A stretch of 64,000 nucleotides of DNA from a virus (taxonomy: Duplodnaviria > Caudoviricetes): the IMG/VR virus record IMGVR_UViG_3300021387_000688, one strand, 5' to 3'. The position numbers and the translations under genes were made by a program. The notes beneath the pieces are model-generated. The model was not told the origin of the DNA. It ran no database searches and saw only the letters and a program-made list of their open reading frames with translations. Every line of letters begins with the position of its first letter. Within the stretch, counting starts at the first letter, position 1. Shown here in pieces: positions 12,401-53,512 of the stretch.

Positions 12401-13693
12401 ATGATAGACGTAAGGGCATTAGATTTAGATAATTTCATAGAAGCAAATGGGGCGAAAGATGTAGTTACTCCAATGGGATTTTTTATTAAATCTTCTATAA
12501 GAGAAGCTATGCCAGTAGCGGGTTATTATTATACTTCAGGTTATGTTACCCCAGACATGTTATTATTAAATGTAGGATCTGCTGTAGGGCTTAAATACTC
12601 TTTAGATCCTGCAAATACGAAATGGAAAAACAGAAATTGGAATGATTTCCCTTCTATGCTTTTTAAGAATGCTAAATGTCATGGCGGTGTTAAAGGAATG
12701 GATTGGACTCTCAATTTTATTAATAAATTGTCCTTTTTCCAAAACTCAGATATACGAGAAGCATATACGGATAGGTTTGGAAATGATGTGATAAACGCGG
12801 TTATTAAATCTAATTCTTATTTACAAACTTTACAAACTAACATCCAAAAAACAGATAACTTTAATTCATTGTTTAGGTCTTTGGGAGAAAATGATATTGA
12901 ATTTATAAACGAAACGGTTTCTCCAAACTTTAGTATTGCTTATGGTAAACCTTTATTCTTTATAGGATTGGATGGTAAAATAAATTACACTTCTATCAAC
13001 AGAATACTTAACGATAGTTATATGCCCAAGCTTCAACTCTCTTTAGGGGAGATACATGATAAAGTTTCTAAAGCATTTACTAAATCAAAAGTTGAAAGTT
13101 TAATGGGTAGTGATAAATATTCTAGGTGTTCTACAAATAATTACGATATAGATTTAGGAGGGGAAGATGGTTGGAAACATATTAAACCTGTAATGTATTA
13201 CAGCCGATTTGACTTACCAAACTCTGTGGCATCTACTGAAATATCTTACCAACCGGTTACCGATAAAGAAACTTTCTATCCTTTAGACAACATGGTATTT
13301 ACCCAAATAAAAAGTACTGAAAGTGGAAGTATTTTTAATAAGGCAAACTCTACTGTATTATATGAAGCTAAAAATATGTTTGAAAGTTCAGAAGATTTTG
13401 TTAGAATAAGGGCCGAAGTTAAAGACTTAACAGAAATAAATGAATTGGTATTGGCCGGAGATAAAGTAGTTATAACTACCCCATATCCTTACTCTGTATA
13501 TAATGGAATTTATGCAATTGAAGATATTACTTACGTAAGTAAATCTAATTTAACTTCTATGATTATTACTTGTATTAGACCTAATATTGATTTAAGCTGG
13601 TCCGATACTTTAGGAGATTTGAAAGATTCAGAAGAATTCCAATTCAAATATGCTCCTACACCTAATCGTAGTTTATTCTACAGTGCGACTTAA
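12401..13693 (+). CDS. putative baseplate hub protein (gp27/GpD-like)
   Basis: C-terminal LAGDKVVI...YNGIYAIEDITY...MIITCIR pattern; ACTAAATA upstream. Confidence 0.45.
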   Translation: MIDVRALDLDNFIEANGAKDVVTPMGFFIKSSIREAMPVAGYYYTSGYVTPDMLLLNVGSAVGLKYSLDPANTKWKNRNWNDFPSMLFKNAKCHGGVKGMDWTLNFINKLSFFQNSDIREAYTDRFGNDVINAVIKSNSYLQTLQTNIQKTDNFNSLFRSLGENDIEFINETVSPNFSIAYGKPLFFIGLDGKINYTSINRILNDSYMPKLQLSLGEIHDKVSKAFTKSKVESLMGSDKYSRCSTNNYDIDLGGEDGWKHIKPVMYYSRFDLPNSVASTEISYQPVTDKETFYPLDNMVFTQIKSTESGSIFNKANSTVLYEAKNMFESSEDFVRIRAEVKDLTEINELVLAGDKVVITTPYPYSVYNGIYAIEDITYVSKSNLTSMIITCIRPNIDLSWSDTLGDLKDSEEFQFKYAPTPNRSLFYSAT

Positions 13694-31305: not shown

Positions 31306-33183
31306 ATGATAACATTGGGATTTGAAAAAGGTAACATAGTAGCAGGAATAGTTAACACTAAAGATGAAAGTGATTTCAAAATGTGCTGCTCTATATTAAA
31401 AAATCAAAAGTTTAGATGGAACCCTGATAGAAGGCAATGGGAAAAATCCGCTCTTCTTTACAATAACGATTTATATGATGTATTAAAAATTATTACAGAG
31501 GTTTATTTTCCGGATATTGTCAAACAGCAAATAGAAAATTATCCAAATACTTTACCTACGGAATATGAAGAATATGCCCCTATCGAAAAACTAGATTATA
31601 CCAAATATGTAAAGTTCCCTCCTATCAAAGGTAAACACCCTTATGAAACATTCCAGGATGAAGATATTAGAAAAGCGTTAAGTAGAAATAGAATGCTTTT
31701 CAATTGGTCAATGGGTTGTGGTAAATCTTATGCCACTTCTGTTATTTACGAATACCTAAGAGTAGAAAGAAGTGTACCTAAAATGATTTTGTTAACTACA
31801 AGAGTGGGTACATTAAACTTAAGAAAAGAGTTGTGCAAGTTCTGTAAATCTTTAAAGTTGGAAGATGTTGCAGTTTTCAATTCTCCAAAATCTTTTAAGA
31901 GACAAGCCGGTGGAAGAAAAATATTTGACTCTGTAGAAATATGTGAAAAGAAAGTTTTAGTATTTTCTTACGATAGCTGGAAGTTGATGGCTTCTGCTTA
32001 TGGAGATAAAAAGCAAGGTAGAAAAACAAATATACCTTTAGAAATGTTTACCCATGGCTATGAATGTTTATTGTGTTTGGATGAATGCCATCAATTGTCA
32101 AATCCAAAATCCGAACGTTCAAAATCTTTATTCAAATATTTGAACATGTTTAAGTACAGGTATTTATTTTCTGCCACCCCAGCTGACAAGCCAGAAAAAT
32201 TGTACGCGCTTTGTAGAATACTTGATCCTAACTTAGTAGGGTTTATGAAGTACGATGATTGGATTCATAAATACAACGACGTAGGTACATTTTTCTCAAA
32301 ATATGCTATTAACAAAAAGAAATGGCATATGGATGAAATTGAGAAGTTAAATAAACGTTTGGAAAAATTCTCTGCCAAACGTGAAGCCAAAGATGTATTG
32401 GATTTACCACCTTGTAGAGAAAAAACATTCTATATCGGAATGGGAGAAAAACAACAAGCCCTTTATAAAATTGTAGTTAATGATATTGTTAATGAATGTA
32501 TTAGGCGTCACCCAGATATGGCTTCAACTACAGTAGACGTTATTAAAGAAGCATTTTCTACAGTAATGTCATTTACAGAAAACCCTAATGTATTAGGTGC
32601 AAGTTCAAGTACTTTTGTTTCAGATGAAGTAAAAGAGAAATGTAAAAAGTATAATTATAATGCAGATTATGAAAAGCTTGATGCAGTAGATGCTATTATT
32701 GAAGATGAGATTGAAAGAGACAATAGAGGTATTCTTTGGTACATCCACCCTCTTACAAAAGATGTCTTAAAAGAAAAATATGTCAACTTAAATCCTATCA
32801 TAATTTCAGCTGAGATGAATGCAGATGAAAGAGACGAATTGTTGGAAGAATTTATAAGAAATAAAGCCCATAAAATATTAATTGCATCCCAAAATATTTT
32901 AGCAACTTCTGTAACAATTACAGAAGCCTCTTATGCAATTTACTTGGAAACATCTTTCTCTTATGAAACTTATTTACAATCAACTGGACGTATTTACCGT
33001 ATTGGACAGAAGAAGGATGTAAGAATTTATCACATTTATTATGAAAATTCTGTAGACGTATTCCACGAGATTGCTTTAGGAAAGAAAGCAGATTTGTCTT
33101 CAATGTTATTTGCTAGTGAAAAGAAACCAGTATTCTCTTTACAAGAAATGAAGCAAATGTTTGAAGGACAATTAACCGCTTAG
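31306..33183 (+). CDS. SNF2-family helicase/ATPase
   Basis: SMGCGKS, LDECH, SATP, YLQSTGRIYRIGQ. Confidence 0.9.
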   Translation: MITLGFEKGNIVAGIVNTKDESDFKMCCSILKNQKFRWNPDRRQWEKSALLYNNDLYDVLKIITEVYFPDIVKQQIENYPNTLPTEYEEYAPIEKLDYTKYVKFPPIKGKHPYETFQDEDIRKALSRNRMLFNWSMGCGKSYATSVIYEYLRVERSVPKMILLTTRVGTLNLRKELCKFCKSLKLEDVAVFNSPKSFKRQAGGRKIFDSVEICEKKVLVFSYDSWKLMASAYGDKKQGRKTNIPLEMFTHGYECLLCLDECHQLSNPKSERSKSLFKYLNMFKYRYLFSATPADKPEKLYALCRILDPNLVGFMKYDDWIHKYNDVGTFFSKYAINKKKWHMDEIEKLNKRLEKFSAKREAKDVLDLPPCREKTFYIGMGEKQQALYKIVVNDIVNECIRRHPDMASTTVDVIKEAFSTVMSFTENPNVLGASSSTFVSDEVKEKCKKYNYNADYEKLDAVDAIIEDEIERDNRGILWYIHPLTKDVLKEKYVNLNPIIISAEMNADERDELLEEFIRNKAHKILIASQNILATSVTITEASYAIYLETSFSYETYLQSTGRIYRIGQKKDVRIYHIYYENSVDVFHEIALGKKADLSSMLFASEKKPVFSLQEMKQMFEGQLTA

Positions 33184-35348
33184 TCATTTGTATAGCCGTA
33201 GAGATTATCCATAACTTGTTTACCCCAGCTAGATTCATCATAACTCCATGGCATTTTTGTATTAGATGCTTCTCCAAATTCTTTTAAAGAATCACTAGGA
33301 GAAGCATTTCTGTATTTCATTTCCATTTTAGTCCAACTAAAACCTACTTTGATTTTTAACAAACTTGCAGAGTCTGAAGAGGCCTTAAAACTAAAACGAG
33401 GGGTTGCTTTATATATTCTAAAGTTTTCAAATACGAAATAAGGGGTTTTCATATAAGAATAAAAATCAGGCTTTCCCAAGAATCTACCCACCGTAAAATC
33501 TTTACCGAAAGGTTCATTATGTTCTCTTTGAATATAAGATCCTGGAATAATCTCCAACACTGCATAAGTTTCTAATTCTCCTAAATCTCTTTCCATATCC
33601 TCTGTAGGCTCGAGTTGCCATGCCGTGCCTTTAGTATTTCTTTTATGCGCTTTTGCAACTTCTAACATTTTATCATGTATATTACTGATATTAAAAATTT
33701 CGTTTTGAATGAATTTACCAACTTCACATTCTTTCTCTACCCCTGCTTCATTTCCACTTATAAAATTACAACTCCTGCCTTCATCTACACCTATTCCTAA
33801 GTAATCAAATAAATAACTTAAAGAATTTAATTTCTTATCGCATAAAATTGTACCATCTGCATAATTCTTAACAGTTACGTTATCTTTAGGTTGTAATTGT
33901 AAAAGGTTAAAACCATATCTAGTGCTTTCAGATTTTTTAGAAAAATCTGGTAAAGTTATATCTTGCAATCTAAAGTTATATACTTTATATGAAGTAATCT
34001 TGCCTTCATTTACTGCAGATTTTTTATAAGTCCATAATAAAAACTGAGAGGAAGAAAGTAAAGGATCGTCATTTAACAACTTGAAGAAAGCTTCAGATTC
34101 ATCTTTAAGACCTAATTGCTTATTAAACAAAACCCTTAAAGTAGAATTGATTTTTTCCATATCTGGTAAATCCGGATAAGCATAAGTATTTATTTTAAAT
34201 GATCTTTGTCCTTTATCCGGGCCGGCTGGGATATATGCACTAACATCTCTTGAATTTATAAGAGGATTATTTCCTTTTCCAATTCTTTCAGGGGTCCATA
34301 AATGACCCTTTTTATAAAGTTCGATCTTTCCACCATCTGTACATAAAGAAGCCATTACAGAAGAAGGCTCTTTATTTTTATCTAAAGGGTTAATTTTCCA
34401 GCCTCTAGGAATTCCATTTCCTCCTTTTCCTAAAAGACTGTTTATAGTATTACTTAAATAATCATTTGCTAAATCTACTAAACCCCCGGTAAAATCATTA
34501 AGAGCTTTAACCCAGAAATTATCTTCACCATCTTTACCTGTCCAAAAGTTTTCTACAAACCAATTCCCAAATTTCTCCCATTCATTGCCTAAAGATTTTT
34601 GCTGTTCCCACAACTCTCTATATTTTTCTTTAGCTTTATTTTCATATTCTTTTTTAAATTTTTCCCAAGCTTCGTTATACTCTTCAGAACCTTCTACATA
34701 ATCGTATTTAGATTTGAATATTTTCTTTAATTTAGATTCATTGTTTTTTATCCAGTTGTCTACATAATCTGATTCAGAAGTCAATAGTAAATTATAATTA
34801 ACGGATTGTTCTATCTTCGGAAGAGGAGTAAGCATATCAGAAGCATCTAAACCTCCAAATTGTTTAGTACCTCCCTTTCCATTAATATTTAAGAAATTGT
34901 AAAAATAATCATATACAAGGTCCCCGCCTGTTACTTTTTCAGCTGCTATTGGTTTTCCAGTCCAAGGATCTTTTATGTTAGACTCTTTCCAAGTATCTTC
35001 TAACCCTTTACTATTTTCCCCTAAGGCTATCATATTGAAAGGTACTATGGTTGTGGATTTACCTAAATCTAAGTTTCCCAATTCCTCAATGCCGAAATTA
35101 TTAGCAAATGCACTGTTTCCGTCTTTAGCAATAATAGGTTGGGTATTTTGGGGCATGTAATCATCTATTTGATCAAAATCAGAAGCCTCTAGAGGTGCGT
35201 AATTGATTATACCGTCAAACTCAGGAGCAACGGGAAGTACATAATTACCTACATCGTCAAGATCAGGAGATTGTGCAATTGGTAGGTAATTACCTAGAGA
35301 CTCTAAATCAGGTGCACTCAATTGAAATAATTTTATTTCTTCTTCCAT
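33180..35348 (-). CDS. putative baseplate/tail-tube-initiator-like virion protein with N-terminal tandem repeats
   Basis: four ~14-15 aa PD(L/F)xx(L/V/I)xNY repeats; C-terminal LQDITLP...FENFRI...IKVGFSW tube-fold-like pattern; late motif upstream. Confidence 0.4.
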   Translation of the reverse strand: MEEEIKLFQLSAPDLESLGNYLPIAQSPDLDDVGNYVLPVAPEFDGIINYAPLEASDFDQIDDYMPQNTQPIIAKDGNSAFANNFGIEELGNLDLGKSTTIVPFNMIALGENSKGLEDTWKESNIKDPWTGKPIAAEKVTGGDLVYDYFYNFLNINGKGGTKQFGGLDASDMLTPLPKIEQSVNYNLLLTSESDYVDNWIKNNESKLKKIFKSKYDYVEGSEEYNEAWEKFKKEYENKAKEKYRELWEQQKSLGNEWEKFGNWFVENFWTGKDGEDNFWVKALNDFTGGLVDLANDYLSNTINSLLGKGGNGIPRGWKINPLDKNKEPSSVMASLCTDGGKIELYKKGHLWTPERIGKGNNPLINSRDVSAYIPAGPDKGQRSFKINTYAYPDLPDMEKINSTLRVLFNKQLGLKDESEAFFKLLNDDPLLSSSQFLLWTYKKSAVNEGKITSYKVYNFRLQDITLPDFSKKSESTRYGFNLLQLQPKDNVTVKNYADGTILCDKKLNSLSYLFDYLGIGVDEGRSCNFISGNEAGVEKECEVGKFIQNEIFNISNIHDKMLEVAKAHKRNTKGTAWQLEPTEDMERDLGELETYAVLEIIPGSYIQREHNEPFGKDFTVGRFLGKPDFYSYMKTPYFVFENFRIYKATPRFSFKASSDSASLLKIKVGFSWTKMEMKYRNASPSDSLKEFGEASNTKMPWSYDESSWGKQVMDNLYGYTND

Positions 35349-35590
35349 TAACTTACCTTCCTAACATCTTTGTAATAAGCAACTACCATAACCCCGTTTA
35401 CTTTTTTAAGTAAAAACCCAACGGGGGTAAAAGAAGATTCTATAGTTAAAACATCTGTAGAATTGACATTACAGGGACATCTTATATAAGACATTCCTGC
35501 TCTTTTTGCTTTTTCATATAAATTAAGAGATGCGGTTGTAGCCTTTATTAAAACTACTTTATCTCCTATAGAAAATCTTGGACTACTCAT
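35348..35590 (-). CDS. small hypothetical protein (KOW/SH3-like FSIGDKV)
   Basis: Start refined to ATG 35590, 6 nt after CTAATTG. Confidence 0.6.
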   Translation of the reverse strand: MSSPRFSIGDKVVLIKATTASLNLYEKAKRAGMSYIRCPCNVNSTDVLTIESSFTPVGFLLKKVNGVMVVAYYKDVRKVS

Positions 35591-35668
35591 ACATTTCAAT
35601 TAGTTGAAATACCTATATGGGAAACAAAACACTAAATAATCTAATAAAGATATAAGGAGAAATTTCCC

Positions 35669-37738
35669 ATGAGATTACCTGCAAAGGCAAAAATAGAAGA
35701 AGCCAGAATGAATAAACATATGACCCATTTTGAGTCATTAGTAATGTTAGGACCAGATGGTTTAGCTGAATTAAATAATAAGATAGAGTCCTTCGAAGCT
35801 CAATTGTATGGAGAGGATAGAGGCTTAAATAATACTACCAAAATAGATGGTAGCCCAGCAGTATTTGTTTGGAGTAAGTTTCCAGGTTATCCAGACAATT
35901 CTATCTGTTTGAAATCTTTCATTGATAATGCTAACAATTGCATGACTTCTTTGGATGAGATTTTTGAAAAATACCATGATCGCCCAGATATGTGCAAGAA
36001 GTTGGAAAACGCATTGATGTTGGCAAAGTATATCCCTGAAGGGGAATGCTGGCAAGGAGATTGTTTATTTACTCACGATACTTTGAAAGAGCAAACCATC
36101 GATGGAATTGAATATGTAACCTTCCAGCCTAATAAAATTGTATACGCCATTCCTCAAACTTCTCCTTCTTATGAAACTATAAAAGATGCAGAGTTTGGTA
36201 TTGCATTCCATACAATTTATAAAGACGATGGCAATGGTGGAAAGAAGCAATCATTTAGAGTAGACTTGGAAAGAATACAAGCCCCTAAATGTTTCTACTT
36301 AATGTCGGTTGCATTAAATCTTGATAATAGTAAAGATCCATTCCACATGAATGAGGTTCATAATTTATATACTCGTTTGCAAAGCGTAGAAGCTAAGTTG
36401 AATGCAAATCCAGCCTATGCAGATTTAACAGATAACCAAGCATTTATGGGCTTCTGGAATACTTTTGAAAATAAGAAAATTGCAGATGAAAGAAATGTAA
36501 CATTAAACGAAGATACTGTAATTGAAGAATTGTGGGATTATATTGAAGCTAAACAAACTGCAGAGTTTACAAATAAATTGCAAAACCTCAAAACTGTTAA
36601 AGGTAAGTTAGGAGCAATTGATAAGTGGGTAGACGCTGTAGCAGAAATGAAAGCTTTACTTACAAATAATAACCAGTTGATTGTTTATATGGTACAGGCT
36701 TTCAACTTGGCAGCTCAGATTAAAATGCACTACTGGGAAGGTTTCAAATCTGCTTATAAATCAGATTACGACCAGTATTACTTGTCTAGAACGAAAGGAT
36801 ATATTCCAGCAGATATGGAAGGTATTGCAATGTCAGATTCTGAAGGCAACGTTGTAAAGGTTGTAGATAGAACTACATTCTCTTCTTATAACAGAGACCC
36901 AGATATTATGGCAGGTTGGGAACATCCAGAAGATAAATTAAAAGAGGATATGTCTTCTGAAGATGCTGCAAATGCTGCAGGTGAATATTATAAAAGAACA
37001 AGGGGGTTACCTTACGACAGTACACCATTTTGGGTAAAACAAGGTAGACGTACAGGTAGTTTATATGACTACGATCCTGAAAAAGAAAAAGAAGAAATTG
37101 CCAAAATGAATGTTTGGCTTAAGACACAGAATAAGGCAGATAGAAAAGCGAAGTTTCAAAAGATAAAAGATACAATCTTTGGAGATCCTTCAGATACTTT
37201 AGGTTGCGGTTACGACGATTTAACAGAAAGTAAATTAAAGGAAAGTTATTATTCATCAAGTTGGAGTGTAGAGGATACAGAAACCGCCCTTGAAATGATA
37301 AGAGAGTTTGCTGAAAAACACCATACTGTAATTAAAACAAGCCGTACAAAAAATAACGAAGCAATTGTATTCATTGATGGCTCTGACTTCCATTGTACAA
37401 TTGTTTTAGGTGATTGTGTTAACTTGCAAGAAAATATAAATTATTCATATCATATTTTTATAAGCGGTGCAAAACTTTCAAGTAGAAACGATTGGTGGGG
37501 CTTCACAATTAAAGAGTTTGAAGAAGACTTTGAAGCATTTGATTCTGTATATCATTTCGCTGAAACAGGTTTAAGAGAAAATGTACCTACCGGTTGGATT
37601 GCACGTAGAGTTATGCACGGAGGAACTAAAACAGGTGGAAGAGATGAATTGGTAAAATGCGATGTATGTGGAGAAAAAACAGATCATCCTCATTTTGTCA
37701 ATGGACGCTTCTACTGCGATGCATGTTGGGAACAATAA
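35669..37738 (+). CDS. DUF6267-like ATP-dependent ligase-fold (nucleotidyltransferase) protein with C-terminal add-on modules
   Basis: NKHMTHFE, motif I TTKIDGSPA, WQGDCLF, FQPNKIVY, GIAFHT, motif IV/V EGIAM...VKVVDR..FS; terminal CxxC...CxxC; ACTAAATA at 35631. Confidence 0.75.
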   Translation: MRLPAKAKIEEARMNKHMTHFESLVMLGPDGLAELNNKIESFEAQLYGEDRGLNNTTKIDGSPAVFVWSKFPGYPDNSICLKSFIDNANNCMTSLDEIFEKYHDRPDMCKKLENALMLAKYIPEGECWQGDCLFTHDTLKEQTIDGIEYVTFQPNKIVYAIPQTSPSYETIKDAEFGIAFHTIYKDDGNGGKKQSFRVDLERIQAPKCFYLMSVALNLDNSKDPFHMNEVHNLYTRLQSVEAKLNANPAYADLTDNQAFMGFWNTFENKKIADERNVTLNEDTVIEELWDYIEAKQTAEFTNKLQNLKTVKGKLGAIDKWVDAVAEMKALLTNNNQLIVYMVQAFNLAAQIKMHYWEGFKSAYKSDYDQYYLSRTKGYIPADMEGIAMSDSEGNVVKVVDRTTFSSYNRDPDIMAGWEHPEDKLKEDMSSEDAANAAGEYYKRTRGLPYDSTPFWVKQGRRTGSLYDYDPEKEKEEIAKMNVWLKTQNKADRKAKFQKIKDTIFGDPSDTLGCGYDDLTESKLKESYYSSSWSVEDTETALEMIREFAEKHHTVIKTSRTKNNEAIVFIDGSDFHCTIVLGDCVNLQENINYSYHIFISGAKLSSRNDWWGFTIKEFEEDFEAFDSVYHFAETGLRENVPTGWIARRVMHGGTKTGGRDELVKCDVCGEKTDHPHFVNGRFYCDACWEQ

Positions 37739-37766
37739 TAGTTCTATAATATAAAAGAGGATTATC

Positions 37767-40058
37767 ATGTTAATAAACGAAGAAGCTTTATGGAAAAAAT
37801 TCAATACACGCCTTAAGGAAGGTGTAGATATTGATTTAAGAAATGATATAAGAAATATCTTAAAGGGCTATGTTAGAGACCAGGGTTTAGATCCTGAATA
37901 CTTAAAACAGTATAGTCGTAGCCCTTCTGAAATATTTAGAATTGGTTCTCAACAAGTTTATGAAGTAACTGAAGCTTATATAACTTCTCCGGAATTTGCA
38001 GAAGCTATAAAAGCAAACCACCCAACTGCAATTGTAAACATTACTAAAAATGAAGCAGGGGATTTAGATAAAAAACCTAGAGGTTCAGGTACTGCGTCTG
38101 GAGAATATAGTTCTATTGAAATTGTAATTGATGATAACGGGCTCCTAAACCATTTGTACTTAACAGATATGTCTACAGGTAAAAGAAGAAAAGTTTTCAT
38201 TCCTAATAAACTTATTAAAGACTTTAGTTTGAAATACGATACTGAAGATTTGATTAATACTGTAGCCACTGAAGCTAGTAAATTAAAAGGTTTTGAAGAT
38301 TATGCAGAATTCTTAGTAGAGTTGTTGAAGAGTGCTACTACCTGTAAAGCAGATTCTCCGGCATTGGGAGCAATGTTTAGTTTCTTTGCAGGTAGAATAT
38401 CTACAGTAAAGGCAGATCCAAACAGCAACTCAGCTTACATAACATTTACAAAGAATTCTAGAATGTTTGAATTGATTCAAGAGTTTGCAAATGATTCAAC
38501 CTTTACTCAAATTAAACCTTCTATTAATGTAGACTTTGCAGAAGTATTTGGTGCAATTGCCTTGTTAAGTGCAGTTAGAAGTGACCCTGAAATTGCAGAT
38601 TACTATGCAAATTATAAAATTAAATATCCAGAAGCTTCAAATGAACCTTTAGTAGATTATTATTTGACACCTGGAGGAGTAGAAGAAGGAGTACAGATTT
38701 CTGCAAAAACTGGTGCAGGTGGAAAACCTACAAACGGCTCTATTATTCAAACAGCCTACGGAATGATATCTAAAAGTAAAAACCCTCAATATCAACCATT
38801 TGTTAAATTCTTACAGGAATGGTTGGCAAGAAGTGAAGGTACTGTACACGAAAGCTTTGAACATTTAGCTTCTTGGTTTGAAGAAATGGTTAGAGGTGTT
38901 AGTGAAAATTACCTAATGGAAATGTCCATGTTGGGTAGCGATACTTCAATTGATCCAGCCGATTTGATAGTTAATGTAACGCCAGAAGATTTAGATTCAA
39001 TTAATAATGCAAATACTACTCAAGAAGTTGTAGATGCTTATACTGCTATTTCTAGTAGAACTACTCCTAACAAAGGTGCAAGGTTAAAGGACGCTACAGA
39101 AGAACAAAACGCAGATCCTCTTTATAGAGATGCAATGAAGATTAAAGCAAAAGTATCTTTGTTTATAAATATCTTAAATAATTCTTTTGTAATAGATTTG
39201 ATTAATATGTACTTTAACTTAGGTATGGGGCATATGGTTCAGATTTATTTCTTAGGGGACGTCGCAGATGATTCTCCTACTTGTACGTTTAGAATTCAGT
39301 CTAATGCAACTAAGTTTGCTTATAAATTCTCTTTTGATTGCAACATCGATAATAGACAGAAAAAGTTTACTACAAAGAAATTAGCAATGTCTTTGATGCA
39401 TGAAGGGGAAATTAAGGAGAGGAAAAGAATGATTGAAAAATATCTTAAAGAAGAAGTAACTCCGCCAGAAGATACAATTGTTGTAGCATTTGGAAGATTA
39501 AATCCTCCTACATTAGGTCATCTTAAAATGGTAAATAAGATGGCTACTATAGCAACTCAACGTAGTGCTCATAAGGCTAGAATTTATTTAAGTCATTCCC
39601 ATGATGCAGAAAAGAACCCTCTTCCATATGAATCTAAATTGCAATGGGTAGATAAAGCTTTTGGAGACTTTATTGATGTAGCAGATTCAGATGCAAAGAA
39701 TATGTTCTATATGATGCACGAACTTTATGAAGAAGGTTTCAAACATGTAATCTATGTTTGCGGAGAAGATAGATTTGAAGAGACTTCTAAATATCTTGCA
39801 GGTGCAAATGGTCAAGAACTTACAAAGAGTGGAAAGCCAGTAGCTGCAAATCTTTATTACAAGTTTGATACATTAACTTTTGAAGACGCAGGTCATAGAG
39901 ATGAAAACTCAAATGATTTAGCTGAAAAAGCATCTGCCTCTTTAGCAAGAAGTTATGTTAAAGATGATAGGTTTGATTTATTTGAAGAGATTGTTCCGTT
40001 ATCTGAAAAAGATGCAGAAGATTTATTTATTGAATTAAAAACAGAAATGACAGTATAA
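37767..40058 (+). CDS. fusion of a PD-(D/E)xK-like nuclease domain and a HIGH-superfamily (cytidylyltransferase-like) nucleotidyltransferase
   Basis: N half DFAEVFG...YPEASNEPLVDY...ISAK; C half AFGRLNPPTLGH...KNPL...GEDR...SAS..R. Confidence 0.75.
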   Translation: MLINEEALWKKFNTRLKEGVDIDLRNDIRNILKGYVRDQGLDPEYLKQYSRSPSEIFRIGSQQVYEVTEAYITSPEFAEAIKANHPTAIVNITKNEAGDLDKKPRGSGTASGEYSSIEIVIDDNGLLNHLYLTDMSTGKRRKVFIPNKLIKDFSLKYDTEDLINTVATEASKLKGFEDYAEFLVELLKSATTCKADSPALGAMFSFFAGRISTVKADPNSNSAYITFTKNSRMFELIQEFANDSTFTQIKPSINVDFAEVFGAIALLSAVRSDPEIADYYANYKIKYPEASNEPLVDYYLTPGGVEEGVQISAKTGAGGKPTNGSIIQTAYGMISKSKNPQYQPFVKFLQEWLARSEGTVHESFEHLASWFEEMVRGVSENYLMEMSMLGSDTSIDPADLIVNVTPEDLDSINNANTTQEVVDAYTAISSRTTPNKGARLKDATEEQNADPLYRDAMKIKAKVSLFINILNNSFVIDLINMYFNLGMGHMVQIYFLGDVADDSPTCTFRIQSNATKFAYKFSFDCNIDNRQKKFTTKKLAMSLMHEGEIKERKRMIEKYLKEEVTPPEDTIVVAFGRLNPPTLGHLKMVNKMATIATQRSAHKARIYLSHSHDAEKNPLPYESKLQWVDKAFGDFIDVADSDAKNMFYMMHELYEEGFKHVIYVCGEDRFEETSKYLAGANGQELTKSGKPVAANLYYKFDTLTFEDAGHRDENSNDLAEKASASLARSYVKDDRFDLFEEIVPLSEKDAEDLFIELKTEMTV

Positions 40059-40089
40059 AAAAGAAAAGGGCTACATAAGTAGCCCTTTT
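40044..40089. terminator. bidirectional terminator
   Basis: AAAAGGGCTAC-ATAA-GTAGCCCTTTT at ~40064-40089. Confidence 0.8.
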
Positions 40090-40414: not shown

Positions 40415-41074
40415 ATGACAAGAGATGAAAAGAAAAAATTACAAGAACAATTAGATAAAGATTTTCTAGAAAAGAAAGAATTGTATACCGAACAATGTTT
40501 TGATAAAACTAATCCAGCCTATTCTAAAATGGAAACTATTCTGCAAAATGCTTCAACAAGGCCTTTAGTAAAAGAAGTAGGTTATGAATTGCATCATAGA
40601 ATACCAAGATCCTTTTTTAAGAAAATAAATATTGCAGTTGTAGATAATAACAATCTTTATAAATTAACTTATAGGGAACATTTTTTAGTTCATTATTACG
40701 CATACGTTTGCGCAACTTCTTTTATGAAACCTGCAATGAGTTTAGCGCTTTTGGAAATGAAAAAGATGTGTACAAAAGTAGATGGTTGTTTGGAAGAAGA
40801 TGCAATTTTTATGTCCAATCTTTTCAATAATATTAAATGGGAAATATTTGGAAACAAAAGTAAAGAACATAAAAAATATACTTTGAAATATTTTGAAAAA
40901 CAACTTAAAGACACTTCTATTAGATTTGTAGCATTATATAGAGGAATGACTAATCAAGATTTTGTAATTAAAGGTATTTGTGAAAAGTGCGGCCAGAATA
41001 TTTTACGAGAAGTTAAAATCAATGATTTGGAAAATGTTTTGAAAGAATTAAAGAATCATAAATGTGAAAAGTAA
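40415..41074 (+). CDS. HNH endonuclease-like protein
   Basis: YELHHRIPRS...NNLYKLTYREHFLVH; C-terminal CxxC. Confidence 0.8.
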   Translation: MTRDEKKKLQEQLDKDFLEKKELYTEQCFDKTNPAYSKMETILQNASTRPLVKEVGYELHHRIPRSFFKKINIAVVDNNNLYKLTYREHFLVHYYAYVCATSFMKPAMSLALLEMKKMCTKVDGCLEEDAIFMSNLFNNIKWEIFGNKSKEHKKYTLKYFEKQLKDTSIRFVALYRGMTNQDFVIKGICEKCGQNILREVKINDLENVLKELKNHKCEK

Positions 41075-41169: not shown

Positions 41170-41174
41170 TTTAG

Positions 41175-41249
41175 GTACGGTGGATGGATTCGAACCATCA
41201 AACTTCCTCTGGGAGGCTGAGGCGCTTCACCAATTAAGCTACGCCGTAC
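41175..41249 (-). tRNA. non-canonical tRNA-like gene (pseudo-tRNA; nominal anticodon CUC, His-like G-1:C73)
   Basis: Acceptor GUACGGCG/CACCGUAC (one C-A), D arm GCUU-AAUUGGUG-AAGC, T arm GAUGG-UUCGAAU-CCAUC; anticodon loop GCCUCCC lacks U33 and R37; no encoded CCA. Confidence 0.75.
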
Positions 41250-41261
41250 ACTATTATTTAG

Positions 41262-42302
41262 TTACAGTACTTGGGTACCATCGGCCTTTTTAACAACAAC
41301 TACTTTTCTTGCAATTGTTTTTGAACCACATGTATCTACCTTATCATCTTTTACATGGATGAAAGATTTTTCCAATACTTCTTTTTTATCTGTAGAAGAT
41401 TTCAAATAAAGGATTTCATCTACAACACCTTTTCTACAATAGTAATAATTTCTAGAACCGCCTTTAGGATAAACAACAATGTCTCCTACATCAATTTCTA
41501 CACCATACTGATCCTGTAATTTGTAAGATTGTACAACTTTAGAAACTGGCTTTCTGGGTTTAGATTTTATTTCTTTAGAGGCTTCAAGAGAGAAGAGTCC
41601 ATCCAAAGAATCAATTCCCATACCTTGAGCGAATTCATCGAGCTGTGCATACTTAGAAGGGTCCTCTATAAATACTTTAATAGCTAAGCGTACCCCTTTA
41701 TAATATTTTTCAGGTTCTTCTATCATAGAAGGGGATATATGCCAAGAATCTACTCCATTGCATTCCCAGAAGTCTTTCTTTAATTCCCTACCACCAGTTT
41801 CTCCATATTCACTAGCATGTTTTTCAAGCCAATCCCATTTATAGTGGAATGTATCGTAACTATAAGTGCAGCCTATAAAAGATTTTTCTTTTTCATCGGA
41901 AATTTCTTTAATCTTTTTCAAGAAAGCTTCTACTAAGAAAGCTTGCCAAGATATCAATAGAGGTCCTTTGAGTGGCCCCTTAGATCCGTCTACTTCATTA
42001 TTCTCTCCAAAAGGTGTATATTTTTCTTTCTTTGCCAGATTTATGAAATCTGTTTTTTCTTCAAGAAGTTTCCACCAACCGTTGTATGCTGTAGGAATTT
42101 TATCAAGAGGGATGTAATGGTAATTTGGTTCTTCTTGCGGCTCATCCCACTGTCTCAAATTTTCTTTTAATTCTATTCCCCACATTTTAGGAAACATGTT
42201 GAATACATATTCTTTGTAAGATGATCCGGCTTGCTTTTCAGTACAATAATCTATAACCTTGGTACCAACATCTGAAATCCATCCAAGTACTTCACAACTC
42301 AT
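41262..42302 (-). CDS. hypothetical protein
   Basis: 346-aa ORF, SD GGAGG. Confidence 0.75.
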   Translation of the reverse strand: MSCEVLGWISDVGTKVIDYCTEKQAGSSYKEYVFNMFPKMWGIELKENLRQWDEPQEEPNYHYIPLDKIPTAYNGWWKLLEEKTDFINLAKKEKYTPFGENNEVDGSKGPLKGPLLISWQAFLVEAFLKKIKEISDEKEKSFIGCTYSYDTFHYKWDWLEKHASEYGETGGRELKKDFWECNGVDSWHISPSMIEEPEKYYKGVRLAIKVFIEDPSKYAQLDEFAQGMGIDSLDGLFSLEASKEIKSKPRKPVSKVVQSYKLQDQYGVEIDVGDIVVYPKGGSRNYYYCRKGVVDEILYLKSSTDKKEVLEKSFIHVKDDKVDTCGSKTIARKVVVVKKADGTQVL

Positions 42303-43403: not shown

Positions 43404-44471
43404 ATGGAATTAAAAAAATTTTTAGAAGAATATAACCCTCAATTAGAAAACAATTTTTTATCAAATGAAGAAAGATTGAGATTAATAAAAATATACGATT
43501 CTTTAGAAGATAAGCCAGAAACTTTTGATGATTGGTTACTAGAACACACTCCCCCTGAAACTATTGATTATGTGTTTCCTTATGTAGATTATTCTGATCC
43601 TATTTGGAGGAAAAAGTTTTTTAAAGTCGCAGAAAACTTCGATAGTTACTTAATGACTGATAAAAGATTTGATGGGGACAAAACGTTATTGAGGTGCATA
43701 TTTAAAGGAATAGAACTTTACATGCCCTGGATTGGAATAATACATTTTATAATAAGTGAACCTTCTCAAATACCTGAATGGTTAGATCAAGATAAAATAC
43801 ATGTAGTCTATCATAAAGATTTCATTCCTAATTGTTTTTTACCTACTTTCAATAGTTGCACCATTGAAATATTTTTGCACAGGGTAATAGGTTTATCAGA
43901 AAAATTTATTTACGGGAACGATGATTTTTATCCAATAGGCCCTATGGATTCTTCAGATTTTTTTAAAAAAGATAAACCAGTTACAGAGTTGAATTATCAA
44001 TATTGGAAGTATGCGTTTCATTCTACTGAAAATTTAAAAATGGCAGAACAATGTACTAAAATTCTTAAAGACGGTGTCAGGGGTACAAAACACTTTGTAC
44101 CCCATATTCCCCTAAGTTTTCTTAAATCTTTATATAAATCTATTTATAAAGAATTTGAAAATTTTATCATCTATACAATAAGTCCTTTTAGAAAACTGGA
44201 TAACGCCAGTGTTTATTTTTATTATTACGTAATGTTTTTAAGAAACGAATATGAAGAATCTCTAAGAGGGCCTAGGTATAGGGTATGGACCGGGGACGAA
44301 AAGAGCCCCAAAGATTTGATAGAGATGTTAGATATTTTAGATAAAAAAACTGTAATAAAAAATTATTGGCAAATACTGGTAATAAATAGTTTACAAAACC
44401 TTCATAAAACATTGTTTTTATCTAAATTGTTAAATTATTATAATTTTATATCTAAATTCGAAAAGAGGTAA
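43404..44471 (+). CDS. Stealth-family hexose-1-phosphoryltransferase
   Basis: CR1 IDYVFPYVD..DP.W; CR2 YMPWI...QIPEWL...HKDFIP...LPTFNS..IE..LH...GLSEKFIYGNDD. Confidence 0.9.
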   Translation: MELKKFLEEYNPQLENNFLSNEERLRLIKIYDSLEDKPETFDDWLLEHTPPETIDYVFPYVDYSDPIWRKKFFKVAENFDSYLMTDKRFDGDKTLLRCIFKGIELYMPWIGIIHFIISEPSQIPEWLDQDKIHVVYHKDFIPNCFLPTFNSCTIEIFLHRVIGLSEKFIYGNDDFYPIGPMDSSDFFKKDKPVTELNYQYWKYAFHSTENLKMAEQCTKILKDGVRGTKHFVPHIPLSFLKSLYKSIYKEFENFIIYTISPFRKLDNASVYFYYYVMFLRNEYEESLRGPRYRVWTGDEKSPKDLIEMLDILDKKTVIKNYWQILVINSLQNLHKTLFLSKLLNYYNFISKFEKR

Positions 44472-44474
44472 ATT

Positions 44475-45299
44475 GTGGAAAAAGTCGCTATTATTGTACC
44501 TGCTTACAATGCAGGCAAGTTTATAAAAGATTTATTAAACGATTTATTAAACCAGACTTACGAAAATTGGAATTGTTATATAATTGATGATGGTTCTACA
44601 GATGATACTAAATCCCAAATCTCTGAATACTTAAAAGATACTAGATTTAGGTATTTTTATCAAGAGAATGCAGGCCCAGGAGCAGCTCGTAATAAAGGTT
44701 TAGATAAAATGGGAGAAGAGGAATATATATACATGCCTGACTCTGACGACCGAATAGACTGTCACCTATTAGAAGATTGTGTGCACTACTTGAACGAAGT
44801 ACCCATAGTAGATGTGGTAAGATTTCAAACATTAGAAAAATCTACTCATGGTAAAATAATACCTCAAACAAGGCTTACTGACGTTCCTAAGATAATTAAA
44901 GGATTTGAAGAAAAGGATAATTACCCTTTTCTATGGGGGTGCTGGTCTTATATGTTAAGAAGTAAAGTTGTTAAAGAACACCATTTAAGATTTAATACTT
45001 CTTTAAGAAATTACGAAGATCTTTTATTTTCTTTGGATTTATTATACATTAATCCTTATATTTTAATGGTACCCGATTTTTACTATATTTGGTGTCATAA
45101 AAATGAATCCTCTTTAACAGCTTGCCACTACATCAAAGGTATTTTTACCATAGCATCTCAATGCTGTGAAACAGCCGTAATACCTTGGTTGAAAGAACAC
45201 AGGGATTTTATTTTCAAAAAACATTTACTCAAATTCATAAACCATCAATTAGAGTCCGCTGATATAAAGGCATCCTACCTAATATATTTTTCAGATTAA
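44475..45299 (+). CDS. glycosyltransferase family 2
   Basis: IIVPAYN, IIDDGSTD, NAGPGAARN.G, DSDD, YED. Confidence 0.9.
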   Translation: MEKVAIIVPAYNAGKFIKDLLNDLLNQTYENWNCYIIDDGSTDDTKSQISEYLKDTRFRYFYQENAGPGAARNKGLDKMGEEEYIYMPDSDDRIDCHLLEDCVHYLNEVPIVDVVRFQTLEKSTHGKIIPQTRLTDVPKIIKGFEEKDNYPFLWGCWSYMLRSKVVKEHHLRFNTSLRNYEDLLFSLDLLYINPYILMVPDFYYIWCHKNESSLTACHYIKGIFTIASQCCETAVIPWLKEHRDFIFKKHLLKFINHQLESADIKASYLIYFSD

Positions 45300-45315
45300 T
45301 CTCTATAATTAAATT

Positions 45316-46116
45316 ATGCCTAAAGTAACTATTATTTTACCAATGTACAATTGCGAAAAATATATTTGCAATATGTTAGATTGTTTACAAAAACAAATAT
45401 TCAAAGACTGGTGTTGCATTTTAATAGATGATGGATCTGCTGACAACACTTTTGGAGTTATTGAACCTTATTTGGTAGATGGAAGATTCCATTACATTCA
45501 TAAGGAAAATGGCGGACCATCTACTGCAAGAAATGCAGCTCTTGATTTAGCTTTCAAAGAATATCCTTCCGAGTATATTTATTTCTGCGACGCGGATGAT
45601 TATATTGATCCTAAACTATTAGATGTTTGTGTTAAGAAATTAGATGAAACAAAACTAGACATTGTAGAATTTGGATATAAAACTTTAGACCCTAATGGTA
45701 AAGTTACTTACGATAATTGCGCAAAGAGAGAACAATTTAGTAAATCTGTTTTTACATTATGGTGCGTTTGGAGATGTCTAATAAGAAGTTCTTTAATCAG
45801 AGATAACAATATAAGATTTGATGAAAGGTTAAAATGGGGGGAGGATTCTTTGTTTATGAGAACCTGTGCCTATTATGCAAAAGATAATTGGCATGTAGAA
45901 ATTCCTTATTACTTTTATTACTACAAATGTCAAAACCCAGATTCTTTAATAGTTGATAGTTATAAACATAATAGGAAAGTAAAGAAACTTTACATTAAGT
46001 GTTATGAAGATTTTATAAAATCTCATCCTTGGAATCCAGTTATTGGAGAAATGATTGAACATATCAATTGGCATAAGAAAAATAGAAAACCTCAAAAACC
46101 TCCTCAACTAAATTAA
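45316..46116 (+). CDS. glycosyltransferase family 2
   Basis: IILPMYN, IDDGSAD, NGGPSTARN, DADD, GED. Confidence 0.9.
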   Translation: MPKVTIILPMYNCEKYICNMLDCLQKQIFKDWCCILIDDGSADNTFGVIEPYLVDGRFHYIHKENGGPSTARNAALDLAFKEYPSEYIYFCDADDYIDPKLLDVCVKKLDETKLDIVEFGYKTLDPNGKVTYDNCAKREQFSKSVFTLWCVWRCLIRSSLIRDNNIRFDERLKWGEDSLFMRTCAYYAKDNWHVEIPYYFYYYKCQNPDSLIVDSYKHNRKVKKLYIKCYEDFIKSHPWNPVIGEMIEHINWHKKNRKPQKPPQLN

Positions 46117-53080: not shown

Positions 53081-53512
53081 TTACATCTCCTCGTTCAATA
53101 CTTCAGCTAAAGCATTAAAACCATCTAATAAGAATGATTCAAAATCCTGATCGTCATCATCTTCCGAATCCCAATCGTCCTCAAAGATTGCTCCATCATC
53201 TTTATCAAAAACTCTCATAGAGACTACGACAGCGCCGTCGTCCCTTAAGTCAAAGGATAAACTAACGCTATATGGACCATACTCTAGAATAACACCTAGA
53301 TCCGGCTCATTAAAATAATTATCATCCGGCTCGAAGGCAAACCCATCTGCAACATCCCAAGCTTTATCTAACAACATTGCAAATCTATCCCGAGCTTCTT
53401 CAAGTATATCATTCCTTCTTTCAATGTACGCGATTTTATCATTATTCTTTTTAATCGCTTTATTAAACATATTTTGAAAAATAGTATTAGTTTGTTTGAA
53501 ACAGTTTAACAT
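53081..53512 (-). CDS. acidic hypothetical protein
   Basis: late motif at 53527-53534; FEDDWDSEDDDDQDFE. Confidence 0.7.
   Translation of the reverse strand: MLNCFKQTNTIFQNMFNKAIKKNNDKIAYIERRNDILEEARDRFAMLLDKAWDVADGFAFEPDDNYFNEPDLGVILEYGPYSVSLSFDLRDDGAVVVSMRVFDKDDGAIFEDDWDSEDDDDQDFESFLLDGFNALAEVLNEEM

Follow-up and report, generated by a model that had tools for sequence, protein, structure and literature searches.

A stretch of phage DNA of 64,000 nt (IMG/VR record IMGVR_UViG_3300021387_000688; hereafter the window, to which all coordinates refer) contains two co-oriented genes, gene 1 (689 amino acids, aa) and gene 2 (763 aa), which are separated by 28 nt and form one two-gene unit with a ACTAAATA box at its 5' side and a hairpin at its 3' side (Table 1). 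Both open reading frames (ORFs) that a preliminary description of this DNA had named are present. Gene 1 encodes a protein of the DUF6267 family with the fold of RNA ligases, and gene 2 a small nucleotidyltransferase of the HIGH type, which is fused behind an accessory region of 555 aa, here called X. Folds, conserved residues, gene linkage and fusions as well as leader and linker motifs were observed, and they suggest a unit built around a conserved enzyme pair that would be loaded into the phage head, cut apart, injected and used for mending or modifying nucleic-acid ends. We give this reading about an even chance of being correct.

The sole significant Pfam match of gene 1 was DUF6267 (aa 15-408, E 8e-38). 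Within this domain lie the motifs KIDG (aa 58-61), WQGD (aa 128-131), MEGI (aa 383-386) and VKVVDR (aa 396-401), and over 24 homologues with 27-61% identity the residues K58, D60, G61, K82, G130, D131, F152, P154, N155, H181, T182, E384, G385, K397 and R401 were invariant, in the order of the ligase motifs I, Ia, III, IIIa, IV and V. For aa 1-424, an AlphaFold model based on the homologue alignment (predicted local distance difference test, pLDDT, 90.4) matched the ligase nucleotidyltransferase fold, in which two antiparallel sheets enclose the nucleotide pocket, over 165-204 aligned residues, which bears out the ligase fold and motifs claimed earlier for this gene (KIDG, QGD, EG...K). The best structural matches were NgrRnl (Rnl5; 5cot, 6vt8), T4 Rnl2 (1s68, 2hvr) and REL1 (1xdn), and the fold is likewise common to T4 Rnl1 (5tt6) and the fungal Trl1 ligase domain (6n0v); the figures for the fold matches were 6.8-6.9 for T4 Rnl1, 6.6-6.8 for T4 Rnl2, 6.7 for REL1, 6.1-6.5 for Trl1 and 5.6 for Rnl3. 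As in the RNA ligases, KxDG is followed in ligase order by GD (aa 130-131), F152-x-P-N, EG (aa 384-385) and a late lysine (K397), an agreement of order from which residue-by-residue structural equivalence is not readable. Unlike the RNA ligases, gene 1 carries a helical insert of 135 aa (aa 227-362) ahead of the EG motif, in the stretch that separates the positions resembling motifs IIIa and IV, has Val in place of the second motif V lysine, contains neither an OB nor an Rnl2-type or Rnl1-type C-terminal domain but short modules and a zinc ribbon instead, and belongs to a family that is partnered with a HIGH-type transferase. It also differs from them in showing no sequence-profile similarity: no ligase came up when all PDB sequences were searched with the single sequence and with the profile of gene 1, the DUF6267 alignment showed no relation to the T4 DNA ligase gp30 in hhalign (probability 0.2%), and no PHROGs or NCBIfam family matched. 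Foldseek against the PDB gave nothing for the model, its list being swamped by helical hairpins. Because a sequence-profile match to Rnl1, Rnl2, Rnl3 and Rnl5 is missing, the family was treated as a new one outside these, and the model points to a new, divergent family within the ATP-dependent RNA-ligase (lysine-nucleotidyl) superfamily with predicted catalysis.

Behind the ligase-like domain follow module A (99 aa) and module B (112 aa), both without a Pfam match; when six sub-pieces (modules A and B, the zinc ribbon and three pieces of X) were searched separately against Pfam, only chance-level matches were obtained. In the near-identical relatives P0001, P0003 and P0005 the first KLKE is joined directly to the sequence behind the second KLKE, and the length of P0003, 590 aa, equals 689 minus 99. 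Module A thus looks as if it had been gained or lost exactly between the two KLKE sites, as if modules swap at a repeated linker. Among DUF6267 homologues with a C-terminal extension, 35 of 43 carry [LIM]xE no more than 10 aa from where the domain ends, typically as ESL(E/N/Q)E.

In gene 2, only aa 557-763 matched known families, namely phrog_3041 (E 1.3e-40) and phrog_395 (E 5e-27; 'cytidyltransferase'), while matches to the Pfam CTP_transf_like and NMNAT models were weak. The motif FGRLNPPTLGH (aa 575-585) has invariant G, N, P and H in an alignment of 26 sequences (25 relatives), and in the second signature, SASLAR (aa 723-728), S is nearly invariant and R invariant. Since FGRxNPPTxGH and SASxxR are conserved, the HIGH-type catalytic signatures are intact, with Thr replacing the first His, a replacement that is a trait of phosphopantetheine adenylyltransferases (PPAT). 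The intact HIGH nucleotidyltransferase proposed earlier is supported by the phrog_3041 match and both motifs, with weak matches to the named NMNAT and CTP_transf families. The (T/H)xGH after the first strand and SxSxxR near the C-terminus are shared with NMNAT/NadR, PPAT, TagD and the TmcAL-type MJ0951; unlike these named families, the transferase misses every family cut-off widely and has signatures of its own (FGRxNPP, KNPL, GSDR, YNG, RDPD). For Pfam CTP_transf-like (clan of PF01467), gene 2 scored 13 bits against a cut-off of 21, and relatives 22-29.5 bits. The NMNAT equivalog cut-offs were not reached (TIGR00482, 15.5 vs 112.45 bits, E 0.013; PRK08887, 13.5 vs 164), phrog_3462 gave E 0.005, and the profile matches to the PDB were all weak (MJ0951, E 0.0014; NadR 6gye, 0.047; NMNAT 9rpk, 0.076; PPAT, 0.24), those bearing on an NMNAT assignment having E 0.05-0.5. 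Inside gene 2, AAGGAG precedes an ATG (Met555) at a spacing of 9 nt, the same as for the ribosome-binding site of gene 1, and it is possible that an internal start at Met555 yields a free transferase beginning MIEKYLKEE.

The co-occurrence of the two genes, which the preliminary description had named, was found in the neighborhood survey: of 80 IMG/VR loci with DUF6267, 58 have the transferase gene behind it in the same orientation, and 12 of the remaining 22 have less than 2.3 kb of downstream sequence, too little to tell. Database records place DUF6267 in 470 phage genomes and the transferase in 555, mostly cyanomyoviruses but also Pelagibacter, Methylophilales, RaK2-like and other phages. 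In P-SSM4, PSSM4_154 (DUF6267; T4-GC71, hypothetical) lies directly 5' of PSSM4_155 ('cytidyltransferase'; T4-GC190, 'cytitidyltransferase'), and in S-PM2 the order is DUF6267, transferase (S-PM2p141/142) and the X-like p143; families, order and strand are those of the unit studied here, with identities of 30-34% for the transferase and 24-28% for DUF6267. Unlike in cyanomyoviruses, DUF6267 here is preceded by a leader and extended at its C-terminus by modules of about 265 aa in total, and the transferase is C-terminal in a 763-aa fusion, whereas it is N-terminal in its protein there. Fusions are repeated: DUF6267-transferase (P0029, P0045, P0047, L003), DUF6267-X-transferase (P0086), DUF6267-transferase-X (P0089, P0092, P0094, L004), DUF6267-X (P0085, P0090) and transferase-X (P0088). 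Elsewhere the transferase forms the N-terminus of proteins with varied tails (DUF5824, Zeta-toxin-type kinase, RimK ATP-grasp with Zn protease, DUF6321, HNH). Because tails and fusion partners vary, DUF6267 and the transferase constitute the constant core, and as judged from the sequences X is one of several swappable accessories, joined to the pair at least two times.

Three marine IMG/VR loci (L068:3425-6814, L009:7378-9456 and L026:5739-8462) encode the transferase at the N-terminus of long proteins, with tails of RimK ATP-grasp plus Zn protease, DUF3140 and DUF6321; DUF5824 plus Zeta-toxin-type kinase; and DUF5824 alone. In their sequences these proteins resemble a constant head with swappable effector tails. 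In the S-PM2 record (L083:5998-7777, NC_006820), S-PM2p141 (192 aa) comprises only the N-terminal half of DUF6267, and the start of p142 resembles the DUF6267 helical insert; in the resequenced genome LN828717, the DUF6267 match is unbroken. Probably, either the older record is frameshifted or p142 naturally joins DUF6267 to the transferase.

In T4, the capsid-targeting sequence consists of the first ten residues, of which positions 4 and 7 drive targeting and 8 and 10 processing, and gp21 cleaves after L/I-x-E (PMC9026906). The N-terminus of T4 IPII and IPIII, as translated from the T4 record, is MKTYQEFIAE, and that of the P-SSM4 transferase, MKKFSAFLKE, has the same residue classes at positions 4, 7, 8 and 10. 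When 50 distinct leaders of free transferases from IMG/VR loci were compared with ORFs of the same loci as controls, the pattern aromatic-x-x-aromatic/Leu-aliphatic-x-E was found in 36 of 50 leaders and 32 of 430 control ORFs (p 8e-30). Such leaders (MKKFSAFLKE or M-I-N-S-F-K-x-Y-L-V-E) share the P7, P4, P3 and P1 residues with MKTYQEFIAE of the T4 internal proteins, a group to which, together with Alt, the cargo proposed here bears a likeness. The X/transferase junction of gene 2, R-M-I-E-K-Y-L-K-E-E, aligns with the free-transferase leaders, and DUF6267 N-termini have [LI]xE within the first 14 aa in 37 of 61 cases, compared with 23.5% of control ORFs. A further likeness to the T4 internal proteins lies in the cleavage-site-like L-x-E motifs at domain borders.

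Transferase homologues have been found in virions of S-SM1 (PMC3037559), of S-SCSM1, with S-CBWM1 and one further phage also cited by the authors (PMC9602691), and of S-CREM2 with three peptides (PMC10665884); two of these three papers caution against carry-over. In the fused forms, DUF6267 would be packaged alongside the leader-bearing transferase. The pair is probably carried inside the head of this phage. Its cargo would consist of nucleic-acid and nucleotide enzymes, unlike that of T4, which consists of anti-restriction inhibitors or an ADP-ribosyltransferase.

The ACTAAATA box, which heads the unit and resembles the T4 late box TATAAATA, is not over-represented by count in the window (5 copies vs 6.5 expected). 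However, all five copies are intergenic in a window with a non-coding share of 6% (binomial p 9e-7). Four lie 16-38 nt 5' of gene 1, of the ORFs starting at 12401 and 53512 and of the tRNA-like gene, and the fifth lies at the window end. The looser motif ACTAA[AT]T has 10 of its 21 copies within a 10% non-coding part (p 1e-5) and is also found 5' of the Stealth gene and of ORFs of 895, 1316 and 1804 aa. Since the copies of ACTAAATA are confined to non-coding DNA, the box is regarded as a real upstream element, position and not count being informative. This part of the preliminary description stands; as to the structural nature that it ascribed to other headed genes, the ORFs 12401-13693 and 53081-53512 match no family. 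Late expression of the unit may be supposed from the likeness to the T4 late box. Inside the window, CTAA[AT]T boxes showed no clear association with L-x-E leaders, and the start-codon calls of large ORFs there are uncertain. In one 69-nt spacer, two boxes are arranged divergently: ACTAAATA (35631-35638, +) 5' of gene 1, and ACTAATT (35598-35604, -), which sits 5 nt 5' of an 83-aa ORF (35348-35599, -) that runs on into a 722-aa ORF.

Region X contains DFAEVFG (aa 256-262), SNEPLVDY (aa 291-298) and ISAKTG (aa 311-316), and the residues D256, E259, G262, P288, N292, D297, S312, A313, K314 and G318 of its core are invariant. In the model of aa 1-555 (pLDDT 82.9), the core consists of a helix (244-272, with E259), strands at 283-286, 298-302 (after D297) and 309-315 (with S312-A-K314) and a helix at 323-334. 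This alpha-beta-beta-beta-alpha topology resembles that of PD-(D/E)xK enzymes, the middle residue being Ser and not Asp/Glu. The core motifs recur in cyanophage S-PM2p143 (hhalign 92.5%, E 5e-7), which is also a structural match over the whole length of X (Foldseek against BFVD, E 8e-9). No nuclease appeared for X in the Foldseek lists, including the PDB, or in the VIA lists, which were filled by aa 1-141 so that the core was barely probed. The language-model neighbors of the core, MspI, HaeIII and HinP1I, scored 0.86-0.89, below the line of 0.9 under which the atlas itself labels family assignments as probably wrong, and serve as a lead only. A nuclease function of the X core is plausible from the model: of the nuclease domain claimed earlier, the conserved E/D/SxK core and a fitting topology hold, and structure searches brought up no nuclease. 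At aa 10-141, X has a weak Pol-beta-like fold without the acidic DxD. X had four close relatives in a set of 5.8 billion clustered proteins, a second set of 1.84 billion proteins yielded 15 representatives, and searches with a hidden Markov model and the motif detected the core in 2 of 83 related phage loci (the IMG/VR contig L004 and S-PM2); by tblastn, S-PM2p143 was confined to S-PM2. The P-SSM4 neighbors PSSM4_153 and PSSM4_156 were considered as X homologues and rejected on comparison.

According to the favored reading, the KIDG lysine K58 would accept a nucleotide monophosphate (NMP) and pass the NMP to a 5'-phosphate end, upon which the break would be sealed. The small (T/H)xGH transferase of gene 2 would work with the ligase-like enzyme, here in a form fused behind X. 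The L/I-x-E sites at N-termini and domain borders would mark both proteins as cargo loaded into the prohead, where the prohead protease would cut them into separate enzymes. Injected with the DNA, these may act right at the onset of infection to repair or modify the ends of broken nucleic acids, RNA in the first place and nicked DNA in the second. Break sealing or RNA repair is our best guess for the role, and sealing or modification of ends was ranked first because of the fold matches to nick-sealing and tRNA-repair enzymes, the PNK-like P-loop kinases in some relatives, and RtcB and a tRNA-like RNA in the window. RtcB, already noted in the preliminary description, was recovered by the family search of the window proteins. 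A wider proposal, which we regard as improbable, is that of an unrecognised, self-contained break-sealing system pre-loaded in the capsids of T4-like and giant phages, comprising an RNA-ligase-family enzyme, a transferase that supplies or regenerates the donor, and swappable nucleases, kinases or ATP-grasp enzymes. If this were true, cuts made by host nucleases in phage DNA, tRNA or mRNA would be resealed before any phage gene expression.

Several observations weigh against the favored reading. No sequence profile ties gene 1 to any known ligase, neither PDB profiles nor the comparison with gp30, its motif V (K-x-V) lacks the second lysine, and the nuclease assignment of the X core has no fold match. 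The proteins of the window carry only I-E-E (aa 9-11), L-I-N-E (aa 2-5), L-K-E (aa 16-18) and the internal Y-L-K-E; unlike in T4 internal proteins, their N-terminal leaders (AKIEE, LINEE) are shorter and without aromatic residues and thus only loosely T4-like. The full targeting pattern was found in only 2 of 61 DUF6267 N-termini, and cyanophage DUF6267 has no leader. The head loading claimed earlier is partly supported, by the T4-like leaders of the transferase relatives and the reports from cyanophage virions, whereas the cyanophage table of 2010 (PMC3037559), in which DUF6267 (T4-GC71) is present in 16 of 16 cyanomyoviruses, does not flag it among the virion proteins. The pair also adjoins replication genes here and in cyanophages, which would suit a cytoplasmic role in replication or repair.

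DUF6267 might accordingly be a cytoplasmic nick sealer, acting on Okazaki fragments or in recombination in phages without a T4 gp30-type ligase, with the transferase as an accessory or cofactor supplier and its presence in virions as carry-over or a second role. This is the main rival explanation, and we consider it rather unlikely, albeit worth serious attention. Here the pair lies near genes for a clamp loader, a helicase loader, a DnaB-like helicase and an SNF2 helicase, in cyanophages it follows DNA polymerase, UvsX, gp41 and MazG, and the best fold matches, NgrRnl, Rnl2 and REL1, are nick-sealing ligases. Homologues of gp30 were found in 2644 phage records, where Synechococcus phages are outside the ten commonest genera (the tenth having 63 records), so that cyanomyoviruses seem to be without a gp30-type ligase; in contrast, 375 Synechococcus-phage records contain the transferase. 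The occurrence of DUF6267 in all 16 cyanomyoviruses, unflagged among virion proteins, also fits a replication ligase. Against it stand the T4-late-like box, which sets the unit apart from the transcription of the helicase genes, the leader tag of the partner transferase and its detection in virions, with which a fused ligase-like domain would be co-packaged, and the L-x-E sites at domain borders. A supply of NAD+ or another metabolite, in which the transferase would be a nicotinamide mononucleotide (NMN) adenylyltransferase rebuilding NAD+ against depleting defences or for metabolism and the ligase-like enzyme would use NAD+ as AMP donor or act on a small molecule, appears quite improbable to us. 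The closest named transferase families are indeed of the NMNAT/NadR types (TIGR00482, 6gye, 9rpk, phrog_3462), all of them weak, some relatives have a Zeta-toxin-type P-loop kinase behind the transferase in a NadR-like arrangement, and two cyanophage papers annotated a homologue as NMNAT (PMC9602691, PMC10665884). Yet the NMNAT scores stay far under the cut-offs (15.5 vs 112 bits), the best PDB profile match, MJ0951, is no NMNAT, Thr replaces the first His of HxGH, and the other C-terminal partners (DUF5824, RimK with Zn protease, HNH) are unfit for NAD+ salvage.

Offensive cargo is the least probable of the explanations considered, and we judge it to be very unlikely: X would attack the host's DNA or RNA on entry through nuclease activity, either alone or together with that of a Pol-beta-type transferase, and phage nucleic acid would be modified or protected by the ligase-like and HIGH enzymes. 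The conservation of E259, D297 and SxK314 from giant phages to S-PM2, the restriction-enzyme-like order of strands and helices, the restriction enzymes among the language-model neighbors and the Pol-beta-like fold at aa 10-141 would agree with this, but structure searches listed no nuclease, the atlas scores are below 0.9, with assignments that are probably wrong by the tool's own rating, and the Pol-beta-like part is without the acidic DxD. Moreover, because X is so rare (15 representatives; core motif in 2/83 loci), it cannot be the core function of the pair.

Polyvalent proteins (Iyer et al., 2017; PMC5512222) likewise have several catalytic domains per chain in variable order, with predicted delivery with the DNA and subsequent processing. 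Unlike in these, the hub domains (zincin metallopeptidase, ArdC-N, MuF) are absent here, and processing would be by the prohead protease; neither a cytidylyltransferase nor an NMNAT domain is mentioned in the text of that survey, where RNA ligases occur solely in a different connection (PMC5512222). Our searches of the literature library found no paper on 'DUF6267' or 'cytitidyltransferase'. The pair is already annotated in hundreds of genomes as 'hypothetical protein' and 'cytidyltransferase'; both belong to the core gene set of marine cyanomyoviruses and are among the most widespread phage genes without known function. Added here are the RNA-ligase fold with an intact active-site lysine, the repeated fusions and the T4 head-loading tag on the partner. 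The preliminary description had contained neither the Pol-beta-like subdomain nor the cleavage-site-like L-x-E borders, the fused forms or the alternative of a nick-sealing ligase in phages without gp30. Two hypothetical genes are thereby turned into a bench-testable hypothesis, that of an injected or replication-linked pair of sealing enzymes, which bears on the old gap that T4-like cyanophages are without a recognisable ligase. In the giant-phage version, the same module is built into polyprotein-like cargo with cleavage-site-like borders.

Table 1. Features of the two-gene unit, with positions in the window.
Feature	Position	Strand	Basis or remark
ACTAAATA upstream box, T4-late-promoter-like	35631..35638	+	31 nt 5' of gene 1 start codon
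AAGGAG, ribosome-binding site of gene 1	35654..35659	+	sequence reading
Gene 1: short leader, DUF6267 ligase-like domain, two add-on modules, zinc ribbon	35669..37738	+	ORF; Pfam DUF6267
Gene 1 leader, aa 1-11, ending in I-E-E (L/I-x-E type site)	35669..35701	+	sequence
RNA-ligase-fold nucleotidyltransferase domain, aa 12-422	35702..36934	+	
KIDG, motif I; K58 is the predicted nucleotidyl-accepting lysine	35840..35851	+	K58, D60, G61 invariant
KLKE border site behind ligase-like domain, aa 423-426	36935..36946	+	[LIM]xE near domain end in homologues
Module A, aa 427-525, second KLKE (522-525) at its end	36947..37243	+	missing in near-identical relatives; no Pfam match
Module B, aa 526-637, GLRE (634-637) at its end	37244..37579	+	no family match
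Zinc-ribbon-like C-terminal tail, CxxC...CxxC	37580..37735	+	CDVC aa 664-667, CDAC aa 683-686; zinc-finger Pfam matches weak
Gene 2: X region (aa 1-555) fused to nucleotidyltransferase (aa 566-763)	37767..40058	+	ORF, domain matches, X relatives
X subdomain 1, aa 10-141, Pol-beta-like / RelA-SpoT-like alpha/beta fold, activity doubtful	37794..38189	+	
X core, aa 225-335, candidate restriction-endonuclease-like module (E259, D297, S312-x-K314)	38439..38771	+	invariant residues, model
X C-terminal helical/beta part, aa 340-555	38784..39431	+	model; no Pfam match
In-frame AAGGAG + ATG (Met555) at X/transferase border, possible internal start	39414..39431	+	sequence
YLKEE linker, aligned with capsid-targeting-like leader of free transferases	39441..39455	+	alignment
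(T/H)xGH nucleotidyltransferase domain ('cytidyltransferase', NMNAT-like)	39462..40055	+	phrog_3041, motifs
GC-rich hairpin, 11 bp, likely terminator closing the unit	40064..40089	.	between convergent genes

No near DNA match to the window was found among 50,697 phage records, and its G+C content is 30-38%. The clamp loader, helicase loader, DnaB-like and SNF2 helicases encoded in it are all divergent phage replication genes. RtcB, an HNH protein and a Stealth/GT2 cluster are encoded in the window as well, along with several very large ORFs that match no family. Upstream of the unit, the 722-aa ORF (33180-35348, -) belongs to no family, and its N-terminus has four tandem short acidic motifs ending in G/D/I-x-Y (…DLESLGNY…DLDDVGNY…EFDGIINY…DFDQIDDY…). 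Directly 3' of the unit and before the tRNA-like gene, an HNH homing-endonuclease-like gene is located at 40415-41074 (+; phrog_655, E 2.5e-8). ARAGORN identified the tRNA-like gene as tRNA-Glu(CUC) at 41174-41248 (-), and a ACTAAATA box ends 7 nt 5' of it, both lying within 41174-41262. At 43404-46116 (+), a ACTAAATT box precedes genes for a Stealth CR2 protein (E 1e-26) and, behind it, two GT2 glycosyltransferases; the N-terminus of the Stealth protein, MELKKFLEE, likewise ends in L-x-E.

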